From: Phycisphaerales bacterium
Lineage (GTDB): Bacteria; Planctomycetota; Phycisphaerae; Phycisphaerales; UBA1924
Length of the DNA stretch: 64,000 nucleotides
Reading direction: 5' to 3'
NCBI GenBank assembly: GCA_029260295.1
Contig: JAJDDN010000004.1
Span: 10,246-74,245, forward strand
In this document: one piece after another, positions 17,079-40,492 of the stretch
Position numbering within the stretch: the stretch's first letter is position 1
How the letters are laid out: each line of letters starts with the position of its first letter
The notes under the pieces: model-generated
What the model saw: the letters and a program-made list of their open reading frames with translations, nothing else
What the model was told of the DNA's origin: nothing
Databases searched by the model: none
Translations under genes and position numbers: made by a program

Positions 17079-17122
17079 ACCCCATTATATCGGCACAATC
17101 CAACGAATCTGACCATATCTGC

Positions 17123-17214: not shown

Positions 17215-17233
17215 ATTCCAGAGAGCGGTTCGC

Positions 17234-18664: not shown

Positions 18665-18776
18665 TCCTGAAAATCACGCCCAACGAGGGGCCCAAACCCA
18701 TGCCCAGGCCTCAAAATGCGTGAACCCAGACGATAGGACACCGTCCCTCATTTGCCAACCCGATTCCCAGCCCCCT

Positions 18777-21838: not shown

Positions 21839-21842
21839 AAAC

Positions 21843-23162
21843 TTACCTCGTGACGGCGCGCCCCGAGAATCCCGCGGACCTCCCGTAGGGCCTGGTTGGT
21901 TGCATGCTACTTTGGGGGGGTCCATCATCATCGGCGTACTCAAACGAAGCCCGGTAGGGCGGCCTAGGGCGGTGGAGCGCGACATTGACAATCAATCCCG
22001 TCATCACCCAGCAAGTCAGAAGACTCGATCCGCCATAACTCACGAAGGGTAGGGTGATCCCGATGATCGGGAGCATCCCGAGATTCATCCCCACATTAAT
22101 AATCACCTGAGCCGCAATAAAAGCCGGAATCCCCACCGCGATCATCCGCCCAAGCGGGTCCCGGCAGCTCGCCGCCACCAATAACGCCCCCCCGATCCAC
22201 ATCCCATACAGCACCAGCATCACAATCCCCCCCAATAACCCGAACCGATCCACCACCACCGCAAACACCATGTCATTGTGATCCTCAGGCAGCGAGTTGT
22301 ACCGCACAAGCGCCCGCGCCTCAGGCTCAGAAATCCCAGTCACCTGCCCCGCCCCAATCAGCGTCTGAGCCCGCGTGCTCTGATAGTTGATCCCATGCGA
22401 CCCAGAATCATCCCCCTGGAACTGCTTGACGATCCCCACAATCCGAGCCTTCTGATGAGGCCGCAGTAGCGGATACGCCGCCGGCGCCGCCATCGCCGCA
22501 CACAGCACAATCAAGGTCAGATGCCGCAACCGAGCCCCCGCCGCGATCAACATCGCAAACAGAGCAGGCACAAACAAACTCGCCGTCCCAAGATCCGGCT
22601 GCAGCGTAATCAACCCCACCGGAATCGCCGCGATAATCCCGGGCACAATCAACCCCTTGAGCTGACGATGCGCCGACCGGTACCGCATATACCGCGCCAC
22701 CAAAAGCACAAACGCGATCTTCATCACCTCCGACGGCTGAAAGTCCGCCACCCCCATATTGATCCAAGCCTTCGCCCCGTTCCGTGGAGTCACCAACCAA
22801 CTCGGCACCCCAGGCAGCATCAAGAAAATCAAAAGCCCAAGCCCAACCACATACATCAAAACCGAGAACAACCCAACAACCTTGTAGTGAGGCAGCGCGA
22901 TCACCACACACGCCATCAACCCAATAATCAAAAACACAATCTGCTTAAGCGCCTCAGCCGCCATCGGGCTCCCCGAAGTCTCCCGCACGCTCCCCTCCGC
23001 AATGTCAATCGCATAAATCCCGATAAAGGTCAACGCCAGCGATGCAAACAGCGTCAGCCAAGCCGCGTTCATCACCTTGACCGCATTGAAAAGAGACTGA
23101 TCCCCCCAGCCCGCGCCACGGATCGCCCGCACCCAAATCGGATCACGCCCAAACGCACTCAT
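21843..23162 (-). CDS. rodA: SEDS-family peptidoglycan glycosyltransferase RodA
   Basis: About 10 TM helices with FtsW/RodA-type motifs (QPSE.MK, PDLGT, LPFVSYGGSS). Lies immediately downstream of PBP2 with a 4-bp overlap. Confidence 0.85.
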   Translation of the reverse strand: MSAFGRDPIWVRAIRGAGWGDQSLFNAVKVMNAAWLTLFASLALTFIGIYAIDIAEGSVRETSGSPMAAEALKQIVFLIIGLMACVVIALPHYKVVGLFSVLMYVVGLGLLIFLMLPGVPSWLVTPRNGAKAWINMGVADFQPSEVMKIAFVLLVARYMRYRSAHRQLKGLIVPGIIAAIPVGLITLQPDLGTASLFVPALFAMLIAAGARLRHLTLIVLCAAMAAPAAYPLLRPHQKARIVGIVKQFQGDDSGSHGINYQSTRAQTLIGAGQVTGISEPEARALVRYNSLPEDHNDMVFAVVVDRFGLLGGIVMLVLYGMWIGGALLVAASCRDPLGRMIAVGIPAFIAAQVIINVGMNLGMLPIIGITLPFVSYGGSSLLTCWVMTGLIVNVALHRPRPPYRASFEYADDDGPPQSSMQPTRPYGRSAGFSGRAVTR

Positions 23163-25570
23163 GGCGAACCCCCATCCGAAACTACATTCCCAGGCAGATA
23201 CCCCTCGCTCACCAGCGCATGCACCACCTGATTATTAATCGCCCCAGACACCCGCGACCCAGACCCACCATAATCCACCACCACCGCAATCGCATACTCA
23301 GGCATCCCGCCAACCCCAACAAGCGACACATACCAACTGTGATCCCCCTCCCGAACAACCCGCGCCTCCAAAGGCCCATCCCCATCAGGATCAATCACCA
23401 AAGGCGAAGAAGTCGCCGTCCCCGTCTTGCCCCACACATCAATCCCCTCTGCATTGAACACCGGGTCTTGAATCGTGTCATAAGTCACATGATTCCCCGT
23501 GCCGTTCTTCGCGTTATTCACCACCTCGTACAATCCGTCAAGCGTCATCGCCACCGCCCAACCCGGCAACCCGATATTGCTCACCTCAGGCATCCCGCTC
23601 CTCTGAATCAGCCGCGGCGTGATCTCGAAACCACCACGCGCAATCGTCGAGTACGCATCAACCGCATGCAACGGCGTCCAAGTCACCGGCCCCTGGCCAA
23701 TCCCCATCTGGATCGCATCCTCAGGCGAAATCGAAAGCGTCCCCCCCTTCCCATCAAACACCCCCGTAGAACCAGCCCATGACGAACCAATCCCCAAATC
23801 AATCGGCACCCCAATCCCAAACATCGAATACACCTCTTCGATCCCAGAAGCCCCAAGCCGTTGGCCAAGCGTAAAGAAAAACACATTGGACGACACCATA
23901 AGCGCATCAGTCCCGTCAGGGTGCCTCTCCAACTGATCAAAATGGGTCAGACCAAGATGCTGGTATTTTTTAAATATCCACGACCGAAGCATATTGGGCC
24001 TGTCAGGATACAAATGCCCCGTCGCCTCGATCCGCTCCCCCTGCTCATACATCCCAAGCTTACTCGCCCCAGTCAAAACCAACGCCTTGGCCACAGACCC
24101 AGGCTGATAAGGCTTGGCAATCGCACGATTCACATACGGAAACCGCTCATTCTTAAACCGCTCAACACTCGCCTCAGTCGTAAGCCCCAACCGCCCCCAG
24201 TCCCCATCCCGCGGAGCCACAGGCGTAGACACCATCGCCAAAATCTCCCCAGTCGCCACTTCCAGCACCACCACCGCCGCATCAAGCTCCGTCCCCAACG
24301 CCATATCCGTATTGTCATGCCAAGGCTGCACCCGCGTCATCCCCACCATCGGATCCAGCACCGCCCGCACCCGCGCCGTAAGCGACATATCAAGCGTCAG
24401 CCGAACATCCTTCCCGCTGCTTGGCTGTATCTCGCTCACCCCACGCGTCTGCAGATGCTCCGTCCGCACCCCGCGCAACCCCCGCAGCGAATGCTCCATC
24501 GCCGCCTCAATCCCAGTATGCCCAACCCGATCATGATCCGTGTACCGCCCCCGATCCACACTATCTTCGGTCATCGAAGCAACCCGCAAAGACTCATCCC
24601 CCGCCAGCGCAACCCGACGCCGATCCGCATCCTCCTTAAACACCCGGTCCCGCACCCGCCCAAGCACCAGCGAACCAAGATCCTCAACAACAACCCGCAC
24701 CGTCGAATCATCCCGCAAAGGCAGCGGGAAGCTCGACCGATCCAGAATCACCGTTTCGGATTCAAACGGATACACCCGCCGAGTATTATCCGTAATCTCC
24801 ATCCCCGGAAACAACGGAATCATCTCCTCAAGCGCACTACCCCCCCCCTCCACATAACTCATCGCAGGCACCTCCCGCGTCACCATCCGCATCAACTCAA
24901 ACCCAACCTCATCGCTCACCCCCTCAACAACCGCGTGAGTCACCGTCTGCTCTTTGATCTTCGACGAAGAGTTCTTGACAAACTTCGCCAGATCCTCATC
25001 GCTCACCACAAAACCAAGCCGCTCGCGATCCTCAACCTTGTTCCGCACCCGCGCCCCAACAATCGACCGGTGCTGCCGTTCGATCCCATCAACAATCGAA
25101 TCCCGCCGCCCCATCAGCTCATCGAGCCCAACCCTCGTATACGCCGCGATCGTCCGCAGCGACGCATCCACATGCTTCTGATAAATCCGTCGATAGTTCT
25201 CAATAATCGCGTCGCGTTCCTCGGTTGAATACAGATCCCACTGATCCTTATGCGCCTTGCGGGCATACCGCCTCGCCCGGATAGACGCCCAATCCCCACT
25301 CAGCACCGAATACCCAATCGCCACATCATAACTCGCCTGGTCATACGCCAAGACCCGCCCAGTCCGATCCAAAACCCGCCCCCGCGTCGTCGGCAGCCAA
25401 GTCCGCCGGATCAACCGAGACTCGGCAACCTCCCGCGATGCCGCCCCGTCAACAACCGTCATCCAAGACATCCGCCCAAGGAGCCCAACAAACCCCGCGC
25501 ACACCATCAGCATCAACAGCACCAGCCGCCGATGAAACATACTCGGAATCAATCTAGACAAAGCAACCAT
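23159..25570 (-). CDS. mrdA: penicillin-binding protein 2 (elongasome transpeptidase), with large insertions
   Basis: N-terminal TM anchor. Transpeptidase motifs GSVAKAL (SxxK), SSN and KTGTA. Adjacent to rodA. Confidence 0.9.
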   Translation of the reverse strand: MVALSRLIPSMFHRRLVLLMLMVCAGFVGLLGRMSWMTVVDGAASREVAESRLIRRTWLPTTRGRVLDRTGRVLAYDQASYDVAIGYSVLSGDWASIRARRYARKAHKDQWDLYSTEERDAIIENYRRIYQKHVDASLRTIAAYTRVGLDELMGRRDSIVDGIERQHRSIVGARVRNKVEDRERLGFVVSDEDLAKFVKNSSSKIKEQTVTHAVVEGVSDEVGFELMRMVTREVPAMSYVEGGGSALEEMIPLFPGMEITDNTRRVYPFESETVILDRSSFPLPLRDDSTVRVVVEDLGSLVLGRVRDRVFKEDADRRRVALAGDESLRVASMTEDSVDRGRYTDHDRVGHTGIEAAMEHSLRGLRGVRTEHLQTRGVSEIQPSSGKDVRLTLDMSLTARVRAVLDPMVGMTRVQPWHDNTDMALGTELDAAVVVLEVATGEILAMVSTPVAPRDGDWGRLGLTTEASVERFKNERFPYVNRAIAKPYQPGSVAKALVLTGASKLGMYEQGERIEATGHLYPDRPNMLRSWIFKKYQHLGLTHFDQLERHPDGTDALMVSSNVFFFTLGQRLGASGIEEVYSMFGIGVPIDLGIGSSWAGSTGVFDGKGGTLSISPEDAIQMGIGQGPVTWTPLHAVDAYSTIARGGFEITPRLIQRSGMPEVSNIGLPGWAVAMTLDGLYEVVNNAKNGTGNHVTYDTIQDPVFNAEGIDVWGKTGTATSSPLVIDPDGDGPLEARVVREGDHSWYVSLVGVGGMPEYAIAVVVDYGGSGSRVSGAINNQVVHALVSEGYLPGNVVSDGGSP

Positions 25571-25680
25571 TCAAAAAACCGCCAACCAGACCCACAATTT
25601 CAACCGAAATAACAGCCACAATCCAACCCCATCATACCCAATCGGCCCATCACCCCCCTCCCCACCAATCCTCCCATCCC

Positions 25681-25745
25681 CTTCTCCTCCCCCGCGCCCC
25701 GCGGGGGAGGTGGCCGCCCAGCGGTCGGAGGGGGTCTTCCTCCCC
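25681..25745 (-). repeat. palindromic G/C-rich element, copy 3 (intergenic, upstream of mrdA)
   Basis: CTTCTCCTCCCCCGCGCCCCGCGGGGGAGGTGGCCGCCCAGCGGTCGGAGGGGGTCTTCCTCCC, in the same orientation as copies 1 and 2. It sits between the mrdA start (25570) and the LVIVD gene start (25860). Confidence 0.75.
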
Positions 25746-25859
25746 TCTTTGTAATTGCCAACCATTCCCCCCCTTTCACTCTTGCACCCACACCCGATCC
25801 CCAGTAAACTAACATATATAAAACTATATCCAACCCCCATCATCCCCGAGCCCCAACCC

Positions 25860-27914
25860 ATGCCCCCAAACCTCACCCCCACCCCCATCCAAACCAAAGC
25901 CACCACCCTCCTCCTCCTCGCCCTCCTAACACTCCTAACCCCCCAATCCAAAGCCGACGGCGTCCTCTGCAACTCCAGAAATATACTTGCTTTGCACGAC
26001 ACGCCAGGAAATGCAAGAAATGTCACGCTCGTTGGCACCACAGCATATGTCGCCGATGCGAACTCGGGGTTCCAGATACTCGACATGACTGATCCGACCA
26101 CCCCAGTATTACTAGGGTCATACGACACACCCGGATTCGCAAGCCGTGTGACCATAGTGGGAACAACAGCTTATATTGCAGAAGGCGGGTCCGGGTTACA
26201 AATCCTCGATGTGTCCGACCCCACCGCAATCGTATTTCTCGGATCATTCGACACACCAGGATCAGTTCAGAGTGTTGCCGTTGTGGCCGAAACAGCATAC
26301 ATAGCTGATGGCGATTCCGGCTTGTTAATCCTTGATGTCAGCAATCCAGCAAGCCCGTCAGTGCTCGGGACATTAAGCGCATTCAACAGCAACTTCAGCG
26401 ACATCGTTGTCGTAGACACAATCGCTTACATCACGGACACATTCGAAGGCCTCCGGACTGTTGATATTAGCAACACCAATTCGCCATCGTTGCTCAACCT
26501 AAGAATCATTCAAGGTGCTTCAAAGGATGTGGAGGTCAAAAATTCCGTCGCGTACATCGCAACAACAAACAACGGATTGTTGATATTGGATGTTTCAGAC
26601 CCGTCTTCGCCACAGTTTTTAGCAGCACGGGATACAAACGGAATAGCAGTTTCCGTTACCGTACAAGACACAGTCGCATATGTGTCCGATGGTGATCTGG
26701 GCGTGCTTCTTTATGATGTAAGCAATCCAGCTTCACCTGTCCACATCGGTTCCTATGACACACCCAACAGTGCCCTAGCGGTCGCAACAGATGGAGTCAT
26801 TGCCTATGTCGCCAATGGCTTGGCAGGTATCCAAATTATAGATGTCAGCAATCCCTCTCAGGATTCAATCGTTGGAACATATCCCCTATCCGATGCAACT
26901 GAAATCGATATGGTTGGCAATGTGTCATTTGTCTTACGAACTTTCGCAGGCATGCGAATAATTGATGTCAACAATCCAGCAACACCAACCTTGCTCGGTT
27001 CATACGACAAGCCCGGTTTCAGAGTGTATACAGGAATCTCAGTTGTTGAAAACACTGCATACATCACCGATACAACATCAGGACTTCAGATTGTAGATGT
27101 TTCCGATCCCGAAAATCCTGTTTTCGTCAACTCCTTGAGCTTGCCCAGTAGCCCATCCGATGTGACCGTCGTCGGCTCAACCGCCTTTGTAGTGTCAGGG
27201 TCAACAGGATTGCATCTCGTTGATGTGAGTGATCATTCATCACCGTTCCTGATCAGTTCTATTGATACACCAGGCTTCGCAAGCCATGTTGCTTTAGCAG
27301 GATCAAACGCATTCATAGCAGATGACGACAACGGCTTAGTAATCATCAGCTTGAAAAACCAAGCGAACCCAGTCATCCTCGGCACATACAACACCCCCGG
27401 CGATGCCACAAGTGTCTTTGTAGTAGGCTCCATTGCCTATGTTGCCGATCGCCTTTCAGGCTTGCAATTAATCGATGTATCGAATCCTGCAACTCCAGAA
27501 CTACTCGGATCATACGACACTCCAAGCGAAGCAAGAAGTGTTGTAGTCTCAAATACAACCGCCTACATCGCAGATTTCACCGCAGGCCTGCACATAATCG
27601 ATGTTCAAAACCCACAATCTCCCGTTCATCTGGCATCCAAAGACACCCCCAACAGAGCCACTAGTCTGGTTCTAAACGATTCATTCGTATTCATTGCCGA
27701 TGATGACGCAGGCCTCCAAATCATCGACATCTCCGACTGCCCCCCATGCCCCGCAGACCTCAACAACGACAACACCCTCGACTTCTTCGACATCTCAACA
27801 TTCCTCACCGCCTTCTCAGCATCCGACCCCGTCGCAGACTTCTCCCAAGACGGCCAATACGACTTCTTCGACATCGCCGCATTCCTCACCGCCTTCTCCG
27901 CCGGCTGCCCCTAA
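25860..27914 (+). CDS. LVIVD-repeat beta-propeller protein with C-terminal GCP-terminated dockerin-like anchor
   Basis: Signal peptide MPPNLTPTPIQTKATTLLLLALLTLLTPQSKA (internal ATG 25860). About 14 repeats of the form AY(V/I)AD...GL.I(L/I)DVS(N/D)P..P..LGSYDTPG. The tail is CPADLNNDNTLDFFDISTFLTAFSASDPVADFSQDGQYDFFDIAAFLTAFSAGCP. Confidence 0.8.
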   Translation: MPPNLTPTPIQTKATTLLLLALLTLLTPQSKADGVLCNSRNILALHDTPGNARNVTLVGTTAYVADANSGFQILDMTDPTTPVLLGSYDTPGFASRVTIVGTTAYIAEGGSGLQILDVSDPTAIVFLGSFDTPGSVQSVAVVAETAYIADGDSGLLILDVSNPASPSVLGTLSAFNSNFSDIVVVDTIAYITDTFEGLRTVDISNTNSPSLLNLRIIQGASKDVEVKNSVAYIATTNNGLLILDVSDPSSPQFLAARDTNGIAVSVTVQDTVAYVSDGDLGVLLYDVSNPASPVHIGSYDTPNSALAVATDGVIAYVANGLAGIQIIDVSNPSQDSIVGTYPLSDATEIDMVGNVSFVLRTFAGMRIIDVNNPATPTLLGSYDKPGFRVYTGISVVENTAYITDTTSGLQIVDVSDPENPVFVNSLSLPSSPSDVTVVGSTAFVVSGSTGLHLVDVSDHSSPFLISSIDTPGFASHVALAGSNAFIADDDNGLVIISLKNQANPVILGTYNTPGDATSVFVVGSIAYVADRLSGLQLIDVSNPATPELLGSYDTPSEARSVVVSNTTAYIADFTAGLHIIDVQNPQSPVHLASKDTPNRATSLVLNDSFVFIADDDAGLQIIDISDCPPCPADLNNDNTLDFFDISTFLTAFSASDPVADFSQDGQYDFFDIAAFLTAFSAGCP

Positions 27915-27970
27915 ACCCCCCAGCCCCCCATCCACCACATTCTCTCTCCCGAGTAGCGAATGCCGGGTGC

Positions 27971-28010
27971 CACTGCTTGACCGTCCTCGGCAAGCAGTGT
28001 CTTTTCTTCT
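27971..28010 (+). terminator. intrinsic terminator after the LVIVD gene
   Basis: CACTGCTTG-11 nt-CAAGCAGTG followed by TCTTTTCTTCT. Confidence 0.6.
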
Positions 28011-28057
28011 CCAAAGATGACAATTGGCAAATCACCCCTCCCCCCCTACAATCCCCC

Positions 28058-29440
28058 ATGACCACCAAAACCCCCACCGATACAACAGTTCTCAACTCCT
28101 ACAACCCCTCCACAGGCCAGCTCGTCGGCTCTGTCCCGGTCACCCCGGTCTCGCAAATCGAAGACATCATCGCCAAAGCAAACGCCGCACTCCCTGCATG
28201 GCAAGCCATGACCCCCCAACAACGAGCCGACATCCTCAAACCAGCAGGCAAAGTTCTCGCCGACCGCGCCGAAGAACTCGGCAAACTCCTCTCCCTCGAA
28301 CAAGGCAAACCACTCGCAGAAGGCATCGGCGAAGTCAGCGGCTGCGCTTCCCGCATGGACTGGGAAAACGACGAGGTCGCCAGCGCCGTCCAACCAGAAA
28401 TCCTCAAATCCGACGGCATCGAATCCACAATCCACTACGACGGCTACGGCGTATGCGCCGCCATCACCCCGTGGAACTTCCCGCTCCTCATGCCGCACTG
28501 GACAATCATCCCCGCGCTCATCGCCGGAAACACCGTCATCTCCAAACCCTCAGAGCAAACCCCGCTCATCGCTGACGAGTATGTCAAAATCCTCAACCAG
28601 TTCCTCCCCGATGGCGTCCTCCAAATAGTCCACGGCGAGGACGACCAAGGCAAAGCACTCGTCGCCGGAGACATCCACCTCATCGCATTCACCGGCTCCA
28701 AAAACGCCGGCCAGCACATCATGGCCGCCGCCGCCAATGGACTCAAACGCCTCATCCTAGAACTCGGCTCCAAAGACCCAATGATCGTACTCCAAGGCGC
28801 CGACCTCGACAAAGCCGCAAAGTTCGGTGTCAACAACGCCATCAGAAACTGCGGCCAGGTCTGCGTCTCCACCGAACGCTTCTATGTCCAAGACTCCATC
28901 AAGGCCGAGTTCATCAGCAAACTCGCCGAGGAGTTCAAAAACTTCCCGGTCGGCGACTGCAACGACGAAGCCGCCACAGTCGGCCCGATGGTCATGCGCG
29001 AACAAAAAGACCATGTCGTCGCCCAGATCCAAGACGCCATCACCAAGGGCGCCAAGGTTATCCTCGGAAACGAACCCATGGACGGCAACTTCATCTCCCC
29101 CACCATCCTCGACAACTGTAACCACAGCATGGACATCATGACCGTCGAGACCTTCGGCCCGGTCATTTGCATCGCGACCGTCAAAGACGCCGACGAAGCC
29201 GTCGCCCTCGCCAATGATACAGAATACGGCCTCGGAGCCGTCGTCTATGGGGAAGAAACCATCGCCCGGAAGGCCGCCAACCAGCTCACCGCCGGGATGA
29301 TCGGGGTCAACAAAGGCATCGGCGGCGCGACCGGCACCCCTTGGGTCGGAGCACGCCATTCTGGATTCTCCTACCACAAAGGCCCGATGGGCCACCGCCA
29401 GTTCTGCCAGGTTCGGGTGGTGAGCATCAACGCCGAGTGA
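28058..29440 (+). CDS. NAD(P)-dependent aldehyde dehydrogenase family protein
   Basis: ITPWNFPL, FTGSKNAG, ELGSKDP, catalytic-Cys region NCGQVCVSTERF, EEFGPV-type ETFGPV. The internal ATG at 28058 removes a low-complexity N-terminal extension of the ORF. Confidence 0.9.
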   Translation: MTTKTPTDTTVLNSYNPSTGQLVGSVPVTPVSQIEDIIAKANAALPAWQAMTPQQRADILKPAGKVLADRAEELGKLLSLEQGKPLAEGIGEVSGCASRMDWENDEVASAVQPEILKSDGIESTIHYDGYGVCAAITPWNFPLLMPHWTIIPALIAGNTVISKPSEQTPLIADEYVKILNQFLPDGVLQIVHGEDDQGKALVAGDIHLIAFTGSKNAGQHIMAAAANGLKRLILELGSKDPMIVLQGADLDKAAKFGVNNAIRNCGQVCVSTERFYVQDSIKAEFISKLAEEFKNFPVGDCNDEAATVGPMVMREQKDHVVAQIQDAITKGAKVILGNEPMDGNFISPTILDNCNHSMDIMTVETFGPVICIATVKDADEAVALANDTEYGLGAVVYGEETIARKAANQLTAGMIGVNKGIGGATGTPWVGARHSGFSYHKGPMGHRQFCQVRVVSINAE

Positions 29441-29455
29441 TCCGATCCGGTATGC

Positions 29456-31693
29456 TTGGCTATGCCCAGCGTGATGAGTGATCTCACAACAACCATGAGT
29501 CAGCGTGCCAAGTCTGCTATTGAGCGGATGGGTAGTGAATTGTTGTCGTCACGCACGGGAACGAGTGATCTTGATATTGACCGGCTGGGATTTGAGTTGC
29601 GGGTGGTGCTTCAGCGGATTTTGATACTTGATCGTGTGGGAATGCTGGGTGCCGATCTGACTTGGGAGAAGTTGTTGGATATGGATCTGGAACGGCAATT
29701 GTTCCACGTGGAACAATTGCCTAAGGACCGGATTTGGTCGGGGGATTGGGTGGGTCTTGTGCGGCGGGAGTTTGGCTTGTCCGGCGGGAAATGGTTTGAT
29801 GAAATCGTCGAATTGGTTCGGGGGGATTCGGTGGAGATGGGGGCGGTGGATGAGTCATTGATGGGGTGGGTGGCTCGGATTGAGGATGGTCAGTTTGTGT
29901 TGGTTGCCGAGGATGATTCTGATCGGAAGGTTGGGGGGGTGTTTTATACGCCGGCTTCTGTGGTTGGGTATGTGCTGGACCGGGCACTCTCGCCTGCGAT
30001 TGATGGGTGCGGGAAAGATGTGAATCGGTTGCTTGGTTTGCGGGTGTGTGATCCGGCGTGTGGGTGCGGGTATTTTTTGATTGAATCTGCTCGGCGGATT
30101 TCGGCTGCGATTGAAGTGGCCGGGGGTGGTGATCGGTATTCAGATGTGATCCGGGGGTGTGTGTTTGGGGGCGATGTGAATCGGATGACGGTGGAGGTGT
30201 GCCGATGGTTGTTGTGGCTTGAGGTTTCGGATAGGTCGATTTCGGTTGATGAGCTTCGGCGGAATGTGGTGTGCGGCGATGGGTTGGTTGACGAGGATAC
30301 ATTTGGAAAAAATGGGAATGGGGGGTTTGATGTGGTGGTTGGGAATCCTCCGTTTTTGAATCAGCTGGGGTCTGGGACGGCGCGGTCGGCGGAGCGGGTC
30401 AAGCGGCTTCGCAAGCGTGGGCTTGTTGGAGGGGCGGCGTATACGGATGAGGCTTCTGCGTTCTTTGTGCTGGGGTTGGGGATGGTGGGTGGGATCGAGG
30501 AGCAGAAAGAAAGACCCCCTCCGTCTGCGAAGACGCAGACACCTCCCCCGGAGGCCCGGGGGAGGCGGAAGATTGGGCGGGTGTGTATGGTGCAGCCGCA
30601 GTCGGTGGTGGCTACTCGGGGCGGGGCCTTTGCGCGGGCGAGGGTTGCTGAGATGGGGAGTTTGGAATCGTTGTGGGTTTCCAATGAGCATGTGTTTGGG
30701 GATGCGAGTGTGTATACATGTGCGCCTTGTGTGGTGGTTGGGGGAGAGGGAGAAACTCGGTCGGTTCAAAGACCACTCCCTGACGGTCGCGGCTCGTTGA
30801 AGAGTGGAGCGGGAGTTGTGCGGCGGTTTTCTGGTGGTGGGTTTGTTGAGCATGAGCCGTTGGTTATTTCGAGCGACGAGATTGGGGGGCTTGCGACTTG
30901 GTCTTCTATTGCGGCGGTGACGATGGGGGTTCCTGAGATTGGGATTGAGTCGGCGGGGGTTGTTGGTGATATGGCGACGGCGACTGCGGATTTCCGGGAT
31001 GAGTACTACGGGCTTGTGGGGAAGTTGGTTGAGGATTCAGACTGTCGTGATCTGGAGGGATCGCCTGCGGTGCTGACTACGGGGCTTGTCGATTTGGGGG
31101 TGAACCACTGGGGGCGTAAGGCGACGCGGATTCATAAGGAGCGATGGGAATCGCCTCGGGTTGGGGCGGCTGGGATTGTTGGGGATGCTCGGCTTTCAAA
31201 GTGGGTGGCGGCTCGGCGTGTGGAGAAGGTTGTGGTGGCGACGCAGACGAAGGTAGTGGAGGCGTTTGTGGATGCGACGGGGGAGTTTGTTGTTTTGACG
31301 CCGATGATTTCGGTGATGTTTCGGAATGAAGACATGCAGGAGCCGAAGACGGCACCTACATGGCACCCAGAGAAGAGTGTTTGGATGATTGGGGCGGCGA
31401 TCGGGTCGCCGGTGTGTAGTGCCTTTGCGATGCGGTTCTTTGGGGGGGCGGCGATGCATGCCGATGCGCTCAAGATGAGTGCTCGGCAGGTGATGGAGTT
31501 GCCGCTGCCGGCTGATGGTGCGGGATGGTCAGCAGGGGCCGAGGCCTTTGAACGGGTGCACAGTGCTTGTGGCGATGAATATGACCGTGCGATCACAGAG
31601 TTTGGGGAAGTTATGTGCGGGGCGTATGGGGTTGAGGGGGATGATTTGGAGGGGTTGATGGGGTGGTGGCTTGGGCGGCTGGGGATCGGGTGA
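29456..31693 (+). CDS. Eco57I/type IIG-like N6-adenine DNA methyltransferase (no nuclease domain recognised), solitary
   Basis: GGVFYTPASVVGYVLD, SAM motif I VCDPACGCGYFL, catalytic motif IV VVGNPPF. The long C-terminal region is plausibly a target-recognition domain. Carries an in-frame element copy. Confidence 0.75.
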   Translation: MAMPSVMSDLTTTMSQRAKSAIERMGSELLSSRTGTSDLDIDRLGFELRVVLQRILILDRVGMLGADLTWEKLLDMDLERQLFHVEQLPKDRIWSGDWVGLVRREFGLSGGKWFDEIVELVRGDSVEMGAVDESLMGWVARIEDGQFVLVAEDDSDRKVGGVFYTPASVVGYVLDRALSPAIDGCGKDVNRLLGLRVCDPACGCGYFLIESARRISAAIEVAGGGDRYSDVIRGCVFGGDVNRMTVEVCRWLLWLEVSDRSISVDELRRNVVCGDGLVDEDTFGKNGNGGFDVVVGNPPFLNQLGSGTARSAERVKRLRKRGLVGGAAYTDEASAFFVLGLGMVGGIEEQKERPPPSAKTQTPPPEARGRRKIGRVCMVQPQSVVATRGGAFARARVAEMGSLESLWVSNEHVFGDASVYTCAPCVVVGGEGETRSVQRPLPDGRGSLKSGAGVVRRFSGGGFVEHEPLVISSDEIGGLATWSSIAAVTMGVPEIGIESAGVVGDMATATADFRDEYYGLVGKLVEDSDCRDLEGSPAVLTTGLVDLGVNHWGRKATRIHKERWESPRVGAAGIVGDARLSKWVAARRVEKVVVATQTKVVEAFVDATGEFVVLTPMISVMFRNEDMQEPKTAPTWHPEKSVWMIGAAIGSPVCSAFAMRFFGGAAMHADALKMSARQVMELPLPADGAGWSAGAEAFERVHSACGDEYDRAITEFGEVMCGAYGVEGDDLEGLMGWWLGRLGIG
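30497..30571 (+). repeat. palindromic G/C-rich element, copy 4 (in-frame inside the methyltransferase, opposite genomic orientation)
   Basis: GAGGAGCAGAAAGAAAGACCCCCTCCGTCTGCGAAGACGCAGACACCTCCCCCGGAGGCCCGGGGGAGGCGGAAG. Hairpins GTCTGCG/CGCAGAC and CCTCCCCCGG/CCGGGGGAGG. Translates as EEQKERPPPSAKTQTPPPEARGRRK. Confidence 0.75.
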
Positions 31694-31756
31694 GGAATCT
31701 TGGTCAGTTTGGGAATAACCAAGGATTGGATTGTGTTTGCAATGGTGTAGATATGT

Positions 31757-31813
31757 CCTGTGCGTGAGGCCCGGGCGTGGCTTTAGTCGCGGCTCGGGCC
31801 TCTCTTTTTTTGG
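31757..31813 (+). terminator. hairpin plus T-run (intrinsic terminator after the methyltransferase); copy 1 of a repeated ~55-bp element
   Basis: CCTGTGCGTGAGGCCCGGGCGTGGCTTTAGTCGCGGCTCGGGCCTCTCTTTTTTTGG. Outer stem GAGGCCCG/CGGGCCTC. Seven Ts. Confidence 0.65.
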
Positions 31814-31903
31814 ACTGATTTGAAGACGCCTCTCAATGCGGGGGCTGAGTTTGAACTTGAACGAGATTGCATGGGTGTTATGGCTTTGGTGCCGATGATG
31901 TCA

Positions 31904-33598
31904 TTATCTATCGGCCCGCACAAAGATGATGATCTCGGGGCCTGCTGGCGAGGGGATGCTTGCGATTTCTTTGAGCGATGGATCGGCCCTGATTATTTCG
32001 AGTAGTTGTGCGGTAGCTTGGTCGCCTTGATAACGGTGGATGAGTGGGCGGCCTTGCTCGTCGGCTACGCCTGGTTCATTGGCGACGATGAGGTGGGCTT
32101 TGGCGATCCGCTGGGTGTGGTATTCTGGATTTTCAATAAAGGTGCCGTGGCTGAAGTGCCAGTTGCTGTGACCCTCTAGGAGGATTAGGTACGCGAGGGT
32201 GTCTTTGTTGACATAGCCGGAGGTGGTGAGGTAGACCTGGACCTCGCCGGGTTTTCCGCTGGCTTTGAGGGCTTGATCGGCGAGGGGGCGTGCGTCGACC
32301 AGCTCCTGGGCGACGCTGCGCGCCATGGCGTCGGAGGCGGCTGGATCGAAGCCGGGGCGGCTTGTGGGGGTGATGGCGCCGGGGGTGTTGCGTGGGAAAT
32401 CAAACGCGGCGACCGACCACACGATCAGCGTGATCGAAACGACGAGCCCCACTGCTCGGTGGAGTCTGTTGATTGTACTTTGCTGGTGGGCCAGCATGTG
32501 GCGCAACCCAATTATCGCGATGATCAGCACAAGCACCCCGAAGACGAGGGCAAAGTATGGGTTCTTGGTGGCGTTGGTCGCGGGGATTATTAAACACCCA
32601 AATGACACGATCCAGAGCTGGATGATGTAGTGCTTGAGGGCACGCTGGCGGGCGAGGATGACCGAGAGTGTGCCTGCAGCGGCGAGGATGAGAATCGGGA
32701 GGAGCTGGCGTCCGAAGACGAGGGTGCCGCCCTGGCCCCTGAGGAAGTAGTCGATGTTCTCGAATCCTGCGAGGTTGCGGTCCCAGTTTTTGGCGCGGTC
32801 GCCGAAGGTGTTTTCCCAGAAATAGTTGAAGTAGAGGAGCCCGAAGCGGGCGAAATGTGCGCTGGCGATCACTGTGGAGATCGACGCGGTGAGGGCGATG
32901 TTGATCAGGAGATCTCTGTATTTTGAGTCGGGGTCTTTGCGGCATTGATAGATTTCGCGGAGGGTCATGATCAGACCCGCGATGCCGACATAGACGATGG
33001 TGGCGGCGAAGATGTGGGGCTTGGCGAGCAATGCGATCCCGGTGAGGACGCCTGCGATGACGGCGGCTTTGCGCGTCGCGGGCGATGCGTTGATCATGAG
33101 CACCGCGAGGATTGCGCCTGCGGTTGCGAAGGCGGCGGCGAAGTCTGGGCGGAAGTCGGTGATGGTGTGGCCCATCAATGGGAGACAGAGGGCGACGATC
33201 CAGCACGAGGACTTGACGCGGAGTGATGCGTTTGGGGTGATCCAGTCGATCAGGGCGAGCATCGCGAGGATGAGCAGGGCGTTGATTGCGTAGGTGGACC
33301 ATGGGGCGGGACCCAAGAGCAGGTAGCCGAGGGTTGAGGCGGAAACGCTCCAGGTGGAGAGCATGGCTTTGATGAATGCGAGGGGATCGCCTGAACGGAT
33401 TGCTTGGAGCTGGGTGAGGGCGTCGAGATGGTGGACGACATCGTCGTATTGCGGGAGAGCGGAGAGGCGTCCGACGGCGAGGGATTGCTGGATTTGGATG
33501 AGTGTGAAGAGTGCTGTGAGGGGGATGGCTAGGGCAAGGCGTTTGTAGAATGGTTGTGGCGGATGATCGGATGTGATTATGGTGGTAAAGATGTTCAT
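31904..33598 (-). CDS. polytopic membrane glycosyltransferase, GT39/ArnT-like (tentative)
   Basis: More than 10 TM helices followed by a ~170-aa soluble C-terminal domain, an architecture typical of ArnT/PMT-type lipid-linked sugar transferases. Start chosen at ATG 33598, preceded by GGAGA. The family call is not motif-proven. Confidence 0.5.
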   Translation of the reverse strand: MNIFTTIITSDHPPQPFYKRLALAIPLTALFTLIQIQQSLAVGRLSALPQYDDVVHHLDALTQLQAIRSGDPLAFIKAMLSTWSVSASTLGYLLLGPAPWSTYAINALLILAMLALIDWITPNASLRVKSSCWIVALCLPLMGHTITDFRPDFAAAFATAGAILAVLMINASPATRKAAVIAGVLTGIALLAKPHIFAATIVYVGIAGLIMTLREIYQCRKDPDSKYRDLLINIALTASISTVIASAHFARFGLLYFNYFWENTFGDRAKNWDRNLAGFENIDYFLRGQGGTLVFGRQLLPILILAAAGTLSVILARQRALKHYIIQLWIVSFGCLIIPATNATKNPYFALVFGVLVLIIAIIGLRHMLAHQQSTINRLHRAVGLVVSITLIVWSVAAFDFPRNTPGAITPTSRPGFDPAASDAMARSVAQELVDARPLADQALKASGKPGEVQVYLTTSGYVNKDTLAYLILLEGHSNWHFSHGTFIENPEYHTQRIAKAHLIVANEPGVADEQGRPLIHRYQGDQATAQLLEIIRADPSLKEIASIPSPAGPEIIIFVRADR

Positions 33599-33680
33599 GC
33601 CAACGGTCTCCGCTTGGTTTGCAGTGTAGCGGATTGGTTGACATGTCACGGGCTCTATGGGCGTGATTCTTGGGTGGGGA

Positions 33681-36140
33681 TTATGGACAACCGCTCTGGA
33701 ACTCCCCTAGGAAAGTGGCGATATCGTGGAAGTCCCACATCCCGTCGCCGTGCATATCGACCCTGTGCTCGAAGAAGAACACGAAATCAAAGAAATCAAG
33801 CTGGCCGTCTCCTGTGAAATCTACATGGCAGGGGACGAACTTATAGGCGGCTCCGGCTCCGGGGCCGTTGTAGTCGTCTTCGATTGCTCCTGTGATGATG
33901 ATGCCTTGGGATATTGAGATTGAGTGGCCCATACGGGCGTTTTCGGAGCTGGTCCCTTCTCTGACCATTCTATGTGTTTGAGTACCTGTTACAGCATCGA
34001 ACAGATATGCGGCGCCTGTTGAGTTGCCGTTGGTGTTGTGGCCTGTTGCGCCTACGGCCACTCTGTGTTGGTCAATGGAGACTGAGGAGCCGAACTGGCT
34101 TGACGGGGCGCCGTTGTCTGGGAGGAGTTTGGCGAGTTGTGTTCCGGTGGCTGCGTCGAAGAGGTAGACCGATCCTGAGTCGAATCCGTTGTCTTGATCG
34201 AGCCATGCTCCTACGGCGACGATGCCTCTGTCTATTGCAATTGAGTACCCGAACTGATCGCCTGGGGCTCCGTCTGATGGGAGGAGTTTGGCGAGTTGGG
34301 TGCCGGTGGTTGCGTCGAAGAGGTATGCGGCGCCGGAGTCTTGGCCGTTGGCGTCGTTCATGTATGATCCGACTGCGACGATGTTCTGGTCGATGGCGAT
34401 ACTCCACCCGAAGCGGTCATCTGATTGTCCATCGCCAGCGAAGAGTTTGGCGAGTTGTGTTCCTGTGAGGGCATCGAATAGGTAGGCGGCACCGGTGTCC
34501 GATGCGTTGGCGTCGCCTCCTGGGGCACCGACGGCGACGGTTTGAGCATCAATGTCGATGGATATGCCGAAGAAATCGAAGAGCCCGGCGTCGGTTGGGA
34601 GGAGTTTGGAGACTTGATTTCCTGTATCAACTTCGAATACATAGGCGGAGCCTGAGGCGGGGCCGTTGTCGTTGTCGACATGGGCGCCGGCGGCGAGAAG
34701 GCCGTCTGAAATGGCTACCGCGTGGCCGAACTGGCTGCTTGGGTCGGCGTCTGCGGGCGTGATTTTGTGGTTGGTAAAGGAGGGGAGACCTGCACTAAAC
34801 ATATAGACGGCTCCTGAGTTTGATCCAGTTTCGTCGTTGAAGCTTGCTCCAACGGCGATGATTCGGTCTTGGATGGCGACTGACTGGCCTAGATGATCAT
34901 CAACGAGACTGGAGAGGGGGATTATTTGTGCAGTCTGGGTGGCTGTGGACAAGTTGTACTGATAGACCGATCCTGAATCAACACCGATCGCATCGGTGAG
35001 TGGTGCGCCGGTGATTACCACGCCATTTTCTAGAGCGGTTGAGGTTGCGTAAGAATCATGAAGTTGGAGTTGTTCTGGGGAGAACTTGGAGACTTGCGTG
35101 CCAGTTGCTAGATCGAAGATGTATGTCGCGCCATTGAACTCATCTAGGGCTGAATTTGCTCCCGGTGCACCGATGGCGAGCGTGTTATTTTCGATTGCGA
35201 GTGAACTTCCGAATTGAGCCAACCTACTCACATCGCTTGCGAGAAGCCTGTGGAGTTCTGTTCGGGTTGCGAGATCGAATAGATAGACCGCCCCTGCGCC
35301 TCCGCCTACAGAGCTGTCTTCAAGTGGTGCACCAACAGCGATGATGCCGTTGCTCATTACGATAGAGGATCCGAAACGGGAAAATCCGGATGTATCGTCG
35401 GGGTTGCTTGGATTCAGCTTTGCGAGTTGAGCTCCGGTGGCGATGTCGAAAAGATATGCGGAACCCGTACGCGGATCGCCTTTGATGCGGTCGTTGTCGG
35501 CACCGACGGCGAGGATGCCGTTGTCGATGGTGACTGATGAGCCGAAGAGATCGTTTGAAGCCCCGTCATCGGGTGTGATTTTGGAGATTTGGGCACCAGT
35601 GGAGGCATCGAATAGGTATACCGAGCCAGAGGAGCCTCCCGCATCATCATCACCCCAGGCACCGACTGCGACGATACCGCTTTGTATGGCGACCGAGTTC
35701 CCGAAAGCATCAGATGGTGATCCGTCATCTGGGAGGAGTTTGAAGAGTTGGTTGCCAGTGGAGGCATCGAATAGGTATACTGAGCCGGAGTTCGTTCCGT
35801 TGTCGTCGTCACTGGGTGCACCTACGGCGACGATGCCGTTGTGGATTGCGATTGAGTTTCCGAACGAGCTGCTGTTGGTCCCATCGTCTGGAATAAGTGT
35901 CACGATTGGGAGTGTCGTGTTGGCATCGACCAAGAATACCGAAACAGCTCCGCCGATGGCGATGATGCCGTTGTCTACAGCTATTGAAGTCCCCAACCTC
36001 GTGTGGGCGGGTCCTTCGTTTGATATGAGTCTTCCGCCATGTAAGATTTCTTGACCGTTGGCTGGTGCGGTCAGTACTGAAATTGTTAGAAAGAGCGTGG
36101 TCCAGACGAGATTGAGGGCGCAGAGGGTATGGGCTCGCAT
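33681..36140 (-). CDS. FG-GAP-repeat beta-propeller protein with C-terminal GCP-terminated dockerin-like anchor
   Basis: Start ATG 36140 preceded by AAGGAG. Signal peptide. About 13 repeats FG.S(V/I)AI....(I/V)AVGA..DD..G..SG(S/A)(V/A)YLFD..TG.Q. The tail is DFTGDGQLDFFDFVFFFEHRVDMHGDGMWDFHDIATFLGEFQSGCP. Confidence 0.8.
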   Translation of the reverse strand: MRAHTLCALNLVWTTLFLTISVLTAPANGQEILHGGRLISNEGPAHTRLGTSIAVDNGIIAIGGAVSVFLVDANTTLPIVTLIPDDGTNSSSFGNSIAIHNGIVAVGAPSDDDNGTNSGSVYLFDASTGNQLFKLLPDDGSPSDAFGNSVAIQSGIVAVGAWGDDDAGGSSGSVYLFDASTGAQISKITPDDGASNDLFGSSVTIDNGILAVGADNDRIKGDPRTGSAYLFDIATGAQLAKLNPSNPDDTSGFSRFGSSIVMSNGIIAVGAPLEDSSVGGGAGAVYLFDLATRTELHRLLASDVSRLAQFGSSLAIENNTLAIGAPGANSALDEFNGATYIFDLATGTQVSKFSPEQLQLHDSYATSTALENGVVITGAPLTDAIGVDSGSVYQYNLSTATQTAQIIPLSSLVDDHLGQSVAIQDRIIAVGASFNDETGSNSGAVYMFSAGLPSFTNHKITPADADPSSQFGHAVAISDGLLAAGAHVDNDNGPASGSAYVFEVDTGNQVSKLLPTDAGLFDFFGISIDIDAQTVAVGAPGGDANASDTGAAYLFDALTGTQLAKLFAGDGQSDDRFGWSIAIDQNIVAVGSYMNDANGQDSGAAYLFDATTGTQLAKLLPSDGAPGDQFGYSIAIDRGIVAVGAWLDQDNGFDSGSVYLFDAATGTQLAKLLPDNGAPSSQFGSSVSIDQHRVAVGATGHNTNGNSTGAAYLFDAVTGTQTHRMVREGTSSENARMGHSISISQGIIITGAIEDDYNGPGAGAAYKFVPCHVDFTGDGQLDFFDFVFFFEHRVDMHGDGMWDFHDIATFLGEFQSGCP

Positions 36141-36414
36141 AAGTAATGCTCCTTGAATTAATACCCTCTTGGATGCACTGTACCATTGGCAATAAACTAT
36201 TCGCAATACGAAACTATGTATTCTGTGGAATTATTGCATTGGCTTGCGGGTCTTTGTCCCCGCCCCACTTGTTAAGGGGGCCATTATTGTCTATTTTGGA
36301 GCGAATTGGGTAACTATGGCCATGGGGACGCATACTTGCAGGCAGGGATCGGGATCTGATATTTGATCAACTGTCTTACTCAACGGGTGGGGTGATCCAT
36401 ATCGAGGGTGTGTG

Positions 36415-36468
36415 CCTGTGCGTGAGGCCCGGTCGCGATTTTAGTCGCGGCTCGGGCCTCTCTTTTGG
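36415..36468 (+). repeat. copy 2 of the ~55-bp hairpin element
   Basis: CCTGTGCGTGAGGCCCGGTCGCGATTTTAGTCGCGGCTCGGGCCTCTCTTTTGG is near-identical to 31757-31813 and in the same orientation. It lies between two minus-strand genes. Confidence 0.6.
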
Positions 36469-36513
36469 CGCCGTGTTAACGACGCGGTTCAGATGTACGC
36501 TTTGTGTTTAGGC

Positions 36514-38352
36514 TTATGGGCAGCCCGCCATGAATGCTGTCAGGAATGTGCTGATGTCAAAGAAGTCGAAGCTGCCGTCTCCTGTGAGATCTGCGATTGG
36601 GTCCCCACTGCTGAATGCGGTGAGGAATGCTGCGATATCAAAGAAGTCGAGCGTGCCGTCTGCGGTCATGTCTGCGGGGCAGGTGTTGACGCAAACGCCG
36701 GTCATTGAGCAGAAGGTGGTGAGTTCTGCTACAGGCGAGACTGCGGTGCCGCCAGGAGCTGCTGGGTCAACGACGAGCCACTGCATGTAGAATGTTTGGC
36801 CGTCGAGTGCTTGGTCGCTTGGGATTGGCCAGAACATTGTGCCGAAGCCGTTGCCGTTTCCTGCGCCTTCGAGTGCGATTGGGCCGAGGATTTCGTCTTG
36901 TGGGACGAGACCTGATACTGGCGGTGAGGTTGAGACGACGACGAATGCTTGTGCACCGCCGAGGGCGTTGTTGATACCGACCTTGAAGCCGTCGTTGCCA
37001 AGGTTTGGTGGGCAGACTGCGATCATGTCTGGGACGATCCCGCCTGAGCCTGCAGTGCCGGCTCCGATGACGGCTGGGTTTGCGGCTGGGAGTTCGGCGT
37101 ACATGGTTGGGCGATCGAAGGGGAATGTTTCGGCTGCGACGCGTGGGTCGGTGAGGCCGTTTTGGAGGAAGTTGATGACATTTGCCTGGGCTTGTGGGCC
37201 AAAGGTGATGGGGAGCGCCATGAATGGATCAAGGTTTTGTGGGAACGGGTTCTGGCCGTTTCTGTGTGCGTAGAAATCGAAGACTTGCATGAGTGAGGCG
37301 TGTCCGCCGTTGTGCATGTAGCGGTCACGGAGACCGGTGTTGCGGAGTGATGGCGTTTTGAAGCGGCCGCGGTCGATTGGGTCGTTTGTGACATTGAATC
37401 GGCCGAGGTCTTCGATGAGTGGACGCACGCCGATGTTTCTGAATGAGTTGTCTGTGAACTGTGCGCCGATGTGGCATGCGTTGCAGAGTGATGCTCTGAA
37501 TGCGTTGAGGCCGTTGATTTGCTGTGGCGACATTGCCGCTGCGTCCCCGGCGATGAACAGGTCGTATGGCGTTTGGTCTGGGACCAGGGTGCGTTCGTAG
37601 GTTGCGATGGCCATGCCTACGCGTCCGGCGGTGAGCTGGGAATCGCCGAAGACTTCTTGGAACATTTGTGGATAGGTTTTGCCTTGGGCGATGACGGCGG
37701 CCATATCTGCCGGGAGATTTGAGGCGAGGGCCAAGGGTTTGGCACCGGTGAGTTTGACTAGGATCTGCGCCCAGTCGCGGCTCTGGTGTGCCATCTCTGC
37801 GCCGCTGGCGGGTGGGCCTACGGCTTGGCTTTCAAGGGCACCGCCTGATGCGATGAGGACTTGTCCTGTGATGGGATCGGTGAACTGTGAAGTGGCGCGG
37901 CCGTCCCAGAAGAGTTCTGGTGCGTACATGCCCATGATTGATGGAGGGGCCTGGCGGCCGGTGACCTGGACATCGAGGTCGTAGAGGGGCGAGGGGACAT
38001 ACTTATCGTCGGCGTCTTGGAAGACGACTCCTGGGGAGCCGAAGATGTCGTCTTGGTTTCCGAAGATGTTATCGGGTCCTGGGTTGATACCCATGCGTTC
38101 ATCGGTGCCTCCGACAGCTGGCTGGTGGCATGAGCCACAGGACATGGTGTTGTCGCTGGAGAGTTGTTCGTCCCAGAAGAGGATTTTACCGAGGTCTGCT
38201 TTTTCTTGGGTGAACTGGTTTTCTGGGGGGAATGGCACTGGTGGGAGCGGCTGGGCTAGGGATTGCGAACTGATTGAAGCCAGTACAATTGCGGGCGCTA
38301 TCAACCTGAGTTGACAGACGATTGGTGAGACACGACAGATGTTGGTGCGCAT
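36514..38352 (-). CDS. di-haem cytochrome c peroxidase (CcpA/MauG family) fused to a C-terminal GCP-terminated dockerin-like anchor
   Basis: Haem sites CGSCH and CNACH, FKTPSLRN, conserved Trp/Met regions, signal peptide. The tail is CPADMTADGTLDFFDIAAFLTAFSSGDPIADLTGDGSFDFFDISTFLTAFMAGCP. Confidence 0.85.
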   Translation of the reverse strand: MRTNICRVSPIVCQLRLIAPAIVLASISSQSLAQPLPPVPFPPENQFTQEKADLGKILFWDEQLSSDNTMSCGSCHQPAVGGTDERMGINPGPDNIFGNQDDIFGSPGVVFQDADDKYVPSPLYDLDVQVTGRQAPPSIMGMYAPELFWDGRATSQFTDPITGQVLIASGGALESQAVGPPASGAEMAHQSRDWAQILVKLTGAKPLALASNLPADMAAVIAQGKTYPQMFQEVFGDSQLTAGRVGMAIATYERTLVPDQTPYDLFIAGDAAAMSPQQINGLNAFRASLCNACHIGAQFTDNSFRNIGVRPLIEDLGRFNVTNDPIDRGRFKTPSLRNTGLRDRYMHNGGHASLMQVFDFYAHRNGQNPFPQNLDPFMALPITFGPQAQANVINFLQNGLTDPRVAAETFPFDRPTMYAELPAANPAVIGAGTAGSGGIVPDMIAVCPPNLGNDGFKVGINNALGGAQAFVVVSTSPPVSGLVPQDEILGPIALEGAGNGNGFGTMFWPIPSDQALDGQTFYMQWLVVDPAAPGGTAVSPVAELTTFCSMTGVCVNTCPADMTADGTLDFFDIAAFLTAFSSGDPIADLTGDGSFDFFDISTFLTAFMAGCP

Positions 38353-38668
38353 GGAATCCTCCTCTTTTTATGATCCTGCAGGGGCATAATGCACCAGAAG
38401 GTCTTGTATTGCAAGATTAACCCGGTGTACCATTGTTTTTTCTATATTTTTTACGGCGATAGAACTGGTTTCTAGCCGCGATCCGGCTATGGAAATTGGT
38501 TGAAAAATAGCGTTGAGACGGTGATGAACTGATTCATTCTGAGAGCGGCCTAGCAGGGGCATTGGAGTGGGAATTGGGCGATTCTGGGGTGTGGTGCGCT
38601 ATGATCTGGGTTCGATCGGGGATTTGGCCCTTATTGAACACATTGAACTATGACAGTGAGACTTTACT

Positions 38669-40465: not shown

Positions 40466-40492
40466 GTCTGACCTTGCTAAAACACTTTATAA

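Follow-up and report, generated by a model that had tools for sequence, protein, structure and literature searches.

A conserved two-gene seam that switches strand composition beside a canonical parS site is the probable start of bidirectional chromosome replication in a clade of marine Phycisphaerales

Bacterial replication origins are taught as intergenic DNA that combines DnaA boxes with an unwinding element, and origin prediction tools assume the same. This is the arrangement of the canonical oriC in Escherichia coli (gidA-mioC) and Bacillus subtilis (dnaA-dnaN), where DnaA boxes and an AT-rich unwinding element (DUE) lie between genes. The rsmG (gidB) gene is an origin-associated marker in many bacteria. 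As stated in PMC3174206, the bacterial leading strand is generally richer in G than in C and in T than in A. Chromosomal parS sites are found within the ori domain, and their consensus is TGTTCCACGtGGAACa in Pseudomonas aeruginosa and TGTTCCACGTGGAACG in Myxococcus xanthus, with TGTTNCACGTGAAACA as the B. subtilis or general form (PMC7022226, Table 1 for the sequences). Planctomycetes are reported to be weakly biased (score 0.023), with a leading-strand gene fraction of ca. 50% (phylum average, 0.50) (PMC4613354). Replication in Planctomycetota is essentially unstudied; dif has never been predicted in Planctomycetes, and our literature search found no paper on oriC or parS in Planctomycetota, on intragenic oriC, or on skew in Phycisphaerales.

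The window analyzed here, i.e., the whole stretch of 64 kb from a Phycisphaerales bacterium, is divided by a single switch in strand composition into the following parts.

1..29440, no strand: left replichore segment; plus strand C-/A-rich, putatively lagging.
29441..64000, no strand: right replichore segment; plus strand G-/T-rich, putatively leading, with a skew-free island at ~41.3-51.6 kb within it.
28960..29920, no strand: skew transition zone, from pooled four-fold sites; strand switch centered on 29440-29500.

In 2-kb windows, the plus-strand GC skew was -0.29 at 27 to 29 kb, +0.31 at 29 to 31 kb, and +0.43 at 30 to 32 kb, and throughout the left 29 kb it stayed between -0.2 and -0.44 (-0.08 at 28 to 30 kb). 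The change from about -0.3 to +0.4 took place at 29.2 to 29.5 kb, and the AT (TA) skew reversed at the same place. The jump between adjacent 2-kb windows reached 0.72 at 29.3 to 29.5 kb, versus a maximum of 0.26 anywhere else. Cumulative minima fell at 29408 for G-C and at 29400 for T-A, and maximum likelihood placed a single change point at 29294 (support, 29209 to 29416). Left of 29440 there were 6,019 G and 10,554 C (skew of -0.27) and right of the junction 11,102 G and 8,099 C (+0.16), with a left versus right chi-square of 1,647. A sequence-only reading of this DNA had described an abrupt switch of composition and codon usage near 29.45 kb, and the computed skew does change sign there.

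At four-fold sites the skew was ca. -0.8 on the left and ca. +0.8 on the right, independently of gene orientation. Oriented along the plus strand, the left-hand values were -0.80 for UvrD (plus strand), -0.87 for PBP2 (minus), -0.82 for a DinG-like helicase (minus), and -0.79 for an aldehyde dehydrogenase (ALDH; plus). On the right they were +0.77 for a methyltransferase (MTase; plus), +0.67 for an FG-GAP gene (minus), +0.53 for AspS (plus), +0.75 for CCP (minus), and +0.85 for carbonic anhydrase (minus). The description of the left as C/A-rich and the right as G/T-rich whatever the gene orientation is therefore borne out by four-fold sites on both strands, and profile searches upheld the gene identifications on which it had been based. 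Strong skew of the expected sign persisted to ±30 kb in the window. A decay of its amplitude with distance from the junction was rejected, as the slope was only -0.01 per kb and was driven by highly expressed or edge genes. There was no gene-strand bias: housekeeping genes are split between the strands, and the genes flanking the junction in relatives are contradictory as to the leading arm. The reported excess of minus-strand genes on the left exists, but it is slight (about 13 versus 9). This lack of bias fits the even split known for Planctomycetes (PMC4613354).

The amplitude of the strand bias in the window and in L001 to L008, L011, L032, and L041 to L047 was 0.3 to 0.45 as window GC skew and 0.7 to 0.95 at four-fold sites, with G:C at these sites up to about 40:1 in some bins. 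This may exceed any replication-strand mutational asymmetry so far seen in bacteria, and a repair or deamination defect might be its cause. In the right arm, a ~10-kb block (~41300-51660) had near-zero four-fold GC skew and a lower GC content, of 0.50. It carries very AT-rich spacers at 41294, 42194, 43286, and 44829 and genes for LTD, Reg_prop, FGE-sulfatase, and gamma-glutamyltranspeptidase, and it ends at a tRNA-Pro(GGG) (51584-51658, minus strand). The block is probably a genomic island of recent acquisition, which has yet to adopt the skew of the host. Four-fold skew was also about zero amid skewed DNA in GAPDH (53696-54745), Csp (61477-61854), and a CoA-transferase (261-992). These genes are probably highly expressed, which suggests that translational codon selection overrides the mutational bias there. 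Near-full-length antisense "shadow" ORFs were found opposite real genes, e.g., at 15567-17072, 17237-18604, and 19473-21041 (all plus strand), and in relatives such ORFs, of 648 to 838 aa, cross the junction (L007 9983-11929 and L008 2325-4841, both minus strand). Since skewed composition depletes stop codons, we consider them artefacts, which could mislead gene callers.

The switch sits at the seam of two genes on the same strand, with rsmG in the left-hand neighborhood.

28024..28052, plus strand: match to a sigma-70-like promoter (TTGGCA-17-TACAAT), immediately 5' of ALDH; consensus match only.
28058..29440, plus strand: aldehyde dehydrogenase (SSADH/BADH-like), Pfam Aldedh 2e-136; last gene of the C/A-rich left arm.
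29441..29461, no strand: gap of 21 nt between the ALDH stop and the MTase ATG; sequence kept in most relatives (..GGTATGCTYGGCTATGCC..).
29462..31693, plus strand: orphan-type N6-adenine DNA methyltransferase with N6_Mtase/Eco57I domains; first gene of the G/T-rich right arm.
29462..29770, plus strand: first ~100 codons of the MTase, a lineage-specific N-terminal extension that contains parS and covers the right-hand half of the transition zone.
20912..21991, minus strand: rsmG (gidB), Pfam GidB 8.6e-43, TIGR00138 above cutoff.

The ALDH gene is transcribed towards the switch and its 3' end is intact (Pfam profile positions 7 to 461 of 461); its NCBIfam matches are at the family level only. 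The downstream gene had been taken to start at a TTG at 29456, leaving a gap of 15 bp, and both points need correction, since the conserved start is the ATG at 29462 and the gap is consequently 21 nt. Between the two genes, no match to a plus-strand promoter or terminator was found, and the pair is probably co-transcribed. At L007 (11377-11380) and L008 (3719-3722), the MTase start overlaps the ALDH stop by 4 nt (ATGA), and the 21-nt gap sequence is absent. As judged from these sequences, the overlap suggests translational coupling of two genes that would lie on opposite replication arms.

The MTase (orthologues, P0002 to P0015) carries motif I VCDPACGCGYFL and motif IV NPPF, and its best PDB match is CamA (1.5e-5). 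No restriction gene stands beside it in any gene context examined, and it thus combines catalytic motifs I and IV with the lack of an adjacent restriction endonuclease, as orphan N6-adenine MTases do. Homology to distant members of the family begins only at residues 103 to 126, where an Acidimicrobiales homologue starts. In the first 80 codons, variability at codon positions 1, 2, and 3 was 0.27, 0.20, and 0.37, respectively, and every indel had a length divisible by three, also when nucleotides were aligned without regard to codons. This periodicity and these indels indicate that the N-terminal extension is coding. A general link of the MTase family to origins was rejected, as the distant homologues L036, L037, and L039 show no origin-type flip. 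So was a cluster of GATC beside the adenine MTase: the motif occurs 8 times per kb throughout, only 1.19-fold the Markov expectation, and is denser elsewhere than at the junction. A role of the MTase at an origin is speculation, the link being positional only.

The rsmG gene, placed about 8 kb away by the sequence-only reading, was indeed found 7.4 to 8.5 kb left of the junction. It is near the switch in this genus only, being syntenic in L047 and absent from the 10 kb around the junction in L003, L004, and L011. Neither the window nor the ±10-kb surroundings of the junction in any relative examined contained dnaA, dnaN, parAB, xer, or ftsK, and none of the fetched DNA gave a tblastn match to E. 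coli DnaA.

When species-representative genomes were scanned with the ALDH protein, 35 loci emerged, all from marine Phycisphaerales or other Planctomycetota MAGs, among them closed chromosomes and Mb-scale contigs. In the ten closest loci (L001 to L008, L011, and L032), whose ALDH orthologues are 74 to 86% identical, the left flank had a skew of -0.10 to -0.28 and the right flank of +0.20 to +0.48, and the cumulative skew minimum fell no more than about 300 nt from the ALDH stop. In all strong-skew relatives, a 680- to 760-aa N6-adenine MTase ORF follows ALDH on the same strand, usually after 15 to 25 nt. In all, at least ten species-level relatives share the gene pair and the flip at its seam, including the complete chromosomes OZ246976.1 and OZ252285.1, and the same flip was present in independently assembled ENA/Tara, JGI, NCBI, and Logan contigs (L041 to L045). 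The more distant relatives among the ALDH loci had weak skew and no flip at ALDH. In the relatives compared, the outer flanks vary while the ALDH-MTase adjacency stays: the rsmG-rodA-mrdA-LVIVD block of the window is absent upstream in L003, L004, and L011, aspS lies directly 3' of the MTase in L007 and L008, and citrate synthase ... ThiG precede the junction in the Tara and JGI genomes. A same-genus contig (L047) is syntenic with the left flank of the window and has the same negative skew, and a 3.6-Mb relative (L046) has uniform skew at an unrelated locus. As the skew is strong to ±30 kb here and in L047, and uniform at that locus of L046, we regard it as replichore-scale.

In a sister group with moderate skew (L014, L015, and L034), neither the MTase nor parS lies beside ALDH. 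The change from negative to positive skew is found there 4 to 9 kb upstream of ALDH (at about 2 to 6 kb of each locus), adjoining an IS200-like transposase and unannotated ORFs. In this group ALDH may be origin-proximal too, but on the other arm.

The sequence-only reading had considered an origin and a large inversion equally good explanations and had proposed a synteny comparison to detect an inversion endpoint. That comparison showed the relatives to be collinear at the junction in independent assemblies, with the flip at the seam in all strong-skew ones, and the inversion is therefore rejected. The origin polarity stands, and an origin is now the favored explanation. The endpoint of a large inversion or rearrangement that joins opposite replichores, with skew as a relic that has not re-equilibrated, would account for a flip in a tiny gap devoid of origin features and would agree with outer flanks that are rearranged between relatives. 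It is hard to reconcile with an ALDH-MTase junction that is collinear, flip included, in at least ten species-level genomes, with near-maximal skew on both arms right up to the seam, and with genes that overlap in some relatives, consistent with a single operon. Moreover, the four-fold sites have turned over. Their identity was 0.46 for ALDH between the window and L007 and 0.39 for the MTase between L007 and L032, versus 0.40 and 0.36, respectively, expected for independent draws from the base frequencies of each gene. Because synonymous sites are thus near saturation between distant lineages, each lineage must be renewing the skew and the boundary is an active one, whereas a relic skew would have decayed or reversed. 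We therefore deem an inversion endpoint highly improbable. An assembly chimera joining two contigs, for which only the abruptness of the flip speaks, has a negligible chance of being the explanation, since the same junction recurs in independent short- and long-read assemblies (NCBI, ENA/Tara, JGI, and Logan) and the reading frames are intact. In practical terms, a tiny gap with a skew flip is not necessarily a misassembly or an inversion.

For a fine map of the switch, four-fold sites were pooled over ten orthologous junctions, which removes amino-acid effects. Pooled skew was ca. -0.75 at and beyond -540 nt and -0.4 from -300 to -120, and in the three 60-nt bins around the ALDH stop it was -0.24, -0.05 (-60 to -1), and -0.11 (0 to 59). 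It then rose to +0.36 at 60 to 119 and ca. +0.6 at 120 to 420; past +480 it was +0.8 to +0.95. The pooled skew crosses zero 0 to 60 nt past the ALDH stop codon, and the transition zone spans about ±450 nt around the seam.

To the right of the switch, ~260 nt inside the MTase ORF, we found the sole conspicuous DNA element, a palindrome with a parS core.

29694..29721, no strand: perfect 28-bp palindrome; 16-bp parS core TGTTCCACGTGGAACA at 29700-29715.

Positions 29700 to 29715 match the parS pattern TGTTNCACGTGNAACA exactly. The core is identical to the P. aeruginosa consensus, one base off that of M. xanthus, and fits the TGTTNCACGTGAAACA form. It is unique in the window, where 1.7e-4 exact matches would be expected (0.16 with up to 2 mismatches). 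In the 865 kb of DNA fetched, each strong-skew relative has one parS-like site (≤2 mismatches), at the orthologous spot some 270 nt past the ALDH stop, and there are no others. The site encodes LFHVEQ, with TTC in 7 of 7 lineages, GAA in 8 of 8, CAA in 5 of 7, and CAC in 4 of 6, versus gene-wide frequencies of 0.27, 0.32, 0.28, and 0.40, respectively. That its codons oppose gene-wide usage indicates selection on the parS DNA itself. The sequence is a putative binding site for ParB; no ParB gene was found in the 64-kb window.

The tetranucleotide ACGT occurs once in the 64 kb, versus 124 to 188 expected, and the sole copy is the parS centre (29706-29709). Among the relatives (L001 to L047) the purge is patchy. 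Lineages that purge ACGT mostly have a centre-mutated parS (ATGT, ACAT, CCGT, or ACGG), and the ACGT-tolerant L004, L006, L011, and L043 retain a perfect one. Deamination of m5C was rejected as the cause of the loss, with ATGT and ACAT at only 1.05 times expectation, and as these two words are not in excess the pattern looks like restriction avoidance in conflict with a putative centromere function. Other palindromes are depleted as well: AATT (64 versus 140 to 240 expected), GCGC (0.5 times expectation), GAATTC (3 versus 26), and GACGTC (0 versus 21). Despite the depletion of AATT, the parS of the window is flanked on both sides by CAATTG.

The parS site bears on the direction in which forks would move. 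A replication terminus, i.e., a dif-type switch with converging forks in a lineage whose leading strand is C-rich, might well look this sharp, as a short site is enough for a terminus; gene orientation does not reveal the polarity here, and most left-flank genes of L042 and L043 are directed at the junction. The right flanks of these two loci, though, have genes pointing away from it, a search for a dif-like 28-bp XerCD site found none, and the polarity opposes the general G>C, T>A rule for leading strands. A conserved canonical parS, an ori-domain marker, lies 260 nt away. We consequently regard a terminus as very unlikely and favor an origin, because chromosomal parS lies in the ori domain. 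That general rule and the parS together lead us to infer that the G-rich strand is the leading one. On the evidence of sequence, parS would place the locus in the ori domain only, not at oriC itself.

The adjacency to parS could also mean that composition is set by another polar process that starts near it, such as ParB/SMC loading, and not by replication, which would suit the absence of oriC features. The zero crossing, however, lies about 250 nt left of parS and not at it, the G+T enrichment is the classic leading-strand signature, and the skew hardly decays over at least 30 kb. We know of no mutational mechanism of this kind, and such a process has, in our judgment, scarcely any likelihood.

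Apart from a skew minimum with origin polarity, present over the ±30 kb covered, the features of a canonical oriC were sought in vain at this switch. TTWTNCACA boxes numbered 1 in 64 kb versus 2.6 expected. With up to one mismatch (TTATCCACA-like), the window has eleven boxes, scattered and none within 1.7 kb of the junction, and within ±500 nt of eight junctions there was none but one in L032. Allowing two mismatches gave no enrichment at any of the eight, and the orientation of the few matches merely follows the skew. The absence of a DnaA-box cluster, noted in the sequence-only reading, is thereby confirmed, as is its remark that there is no room for an oriC: no non-coding region of ≥200 bp exists at the seam, where the gap is 21 nt (-4 nt in L007 and L008) and the flanking DNA is coding. 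Nor was there an AT-rich unwinding element, the lowest GC of any 40-mer near the junction being 0.42, versus 0.17 to 0.30 reached elsewhere in the window. Across eight lineages, no 7-mer within ±500 nt was enriched or repeated except for parS-derived words, and a scan for synonymous-site conservation found nothing besides parS. Codons that run invariantly against the skew were those of parS and a weak cluster of three at 29384-29410.

A canonical DnaA-dependent oriC could still be hidden at or near the seam if the box of this phylum differs from TTATCCACA or is degenerate and embedded in codons. To our knowledge, the DnaA-box consensus is established for a few phyla only. In favor of such an oriC, the seam is where the strand switch falls, the zone is covered by the DNA under the least protein constraint (the MTase N-terminal extension), and there is the small cluster of invariant anti-skew codons at 29384-29410. 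Yet the lack of any AT-rich stretch, of 7-mers other than parS-derived ones, and of synonymous-site conservation apart from parS makes a hidden oriC rather unlikely.

Taken together, the junction is probably the start of bidirectional chromosome replication in this clade of marine Phycisphaerales. This reading is favored because the same flip occurs at the same seam in at least ten species-level genomes, because synonymous sites have turned over, so that the skew is currently maintained in each lineage, and because a canonical parS lies 260 nt away. Under the model that we propose, forks would depart both ways from within roughly ±100 to 400 nt of the ALDH stop/MTase start. Rightward, the plus strand would be leading and become G-/T-rich; leftward, it would be lagging and become C-/A-rich. 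The replication-linked mutational asymmetry would be exceptionally strong (four-fold G:C of about 10:1), and because of this strength the switch can be seen by eye and mapped to <100 nt. With a putative parS centromere 260 nt to the right, inside the MTase frame, origin and segregation site would be practically one locus. The origin would have no non-coding DNA of its own; it would sit at the seam of ALDH and the orphan adenine MTase and be partly covered by the lineage-specific extension of the latter. Initiation might be either DnaA-dependent, with divergent or degenerate boxes within codons (notably those of the MTase extension), or a non-canonical start.

More tentatively, we propose, as a possibility short of an even chance, that this is a compact origin without non-coding DNA, recognizable DnaA boxes, or an AT-rich element, overprinted by the ALDH 3' end and the lineage-specific 5' extension of the MTase gene and fused to parS. 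If so, it would imply either strongly divergent DnaA recognition or a start independent of DnaA, e.g., assisted by transcription or R-loops through the ALDH-MTase unit. The locus would then offer, if confirmed, a natural comparative system (dozens of MAGs and several closed chromosomes) for defining a minimal origin in Planctomycetota. It would also raise the questions of how translated DNA can accommodate both an origin and a centromere, which mutational or repair defect yields about 10:1 G:C at silent sites, and how the purge of ACGT is traded off against a functional parS.

Compared with the described systems, the locus shares with the canonical oriC the negative-to-positive GC-skew switch, T>A on the G-rich arm, a parS close by, and, in this genus, rsmG/gidB in the neighborhood. 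Unlike it, there is no intergenic DNA, DnaA-box cluster, or AT-rich element here, dnaA and dnaN are not nearby, and the switch occurs inside a conserved, probably co-transcribed two-gene unit. It resembles an origin region with oriC plus parS but lacks boxes, DUE, and non-coding space, and we therefore see it as a variant of that class and not a member. As in the chromosomal parS/ParABS system of P. aeruginosa, the identical 16-bp core appears to be origin-proximal, and B. subtilis has a parS site inside coding sequence too, within spo0J. It differs from known parS in that the 64 kb contain a single copy, which lies in a methyltransferase gene only ~260 nt away from the strand switch, and in that its centre is eroded in the ACGT-purging lineages of this clade. 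The orphan N6-adenine MTase, with its NPPF and FxGxG-type motifs, clade-wide conservation, and no restriction partner, is similar to Dam, CcrM, and CamA, the last being the closest solved structure, but unlike these it bears a lineage-specific N-terminal extension. As in genomes of strong bias (Borrelia, Fusobacteria, and Firmicutes), codon usage is set by replication strand and not by gene orientation; unlike them, there is no gene-strand bias, and the AT skew is of the non-Firmicute type. The amplitude, with a window skew of 0.3 to 0.45 and a four-fold skew of 0.7 to 0.9, is far beyond that reported for Planctomycetes.
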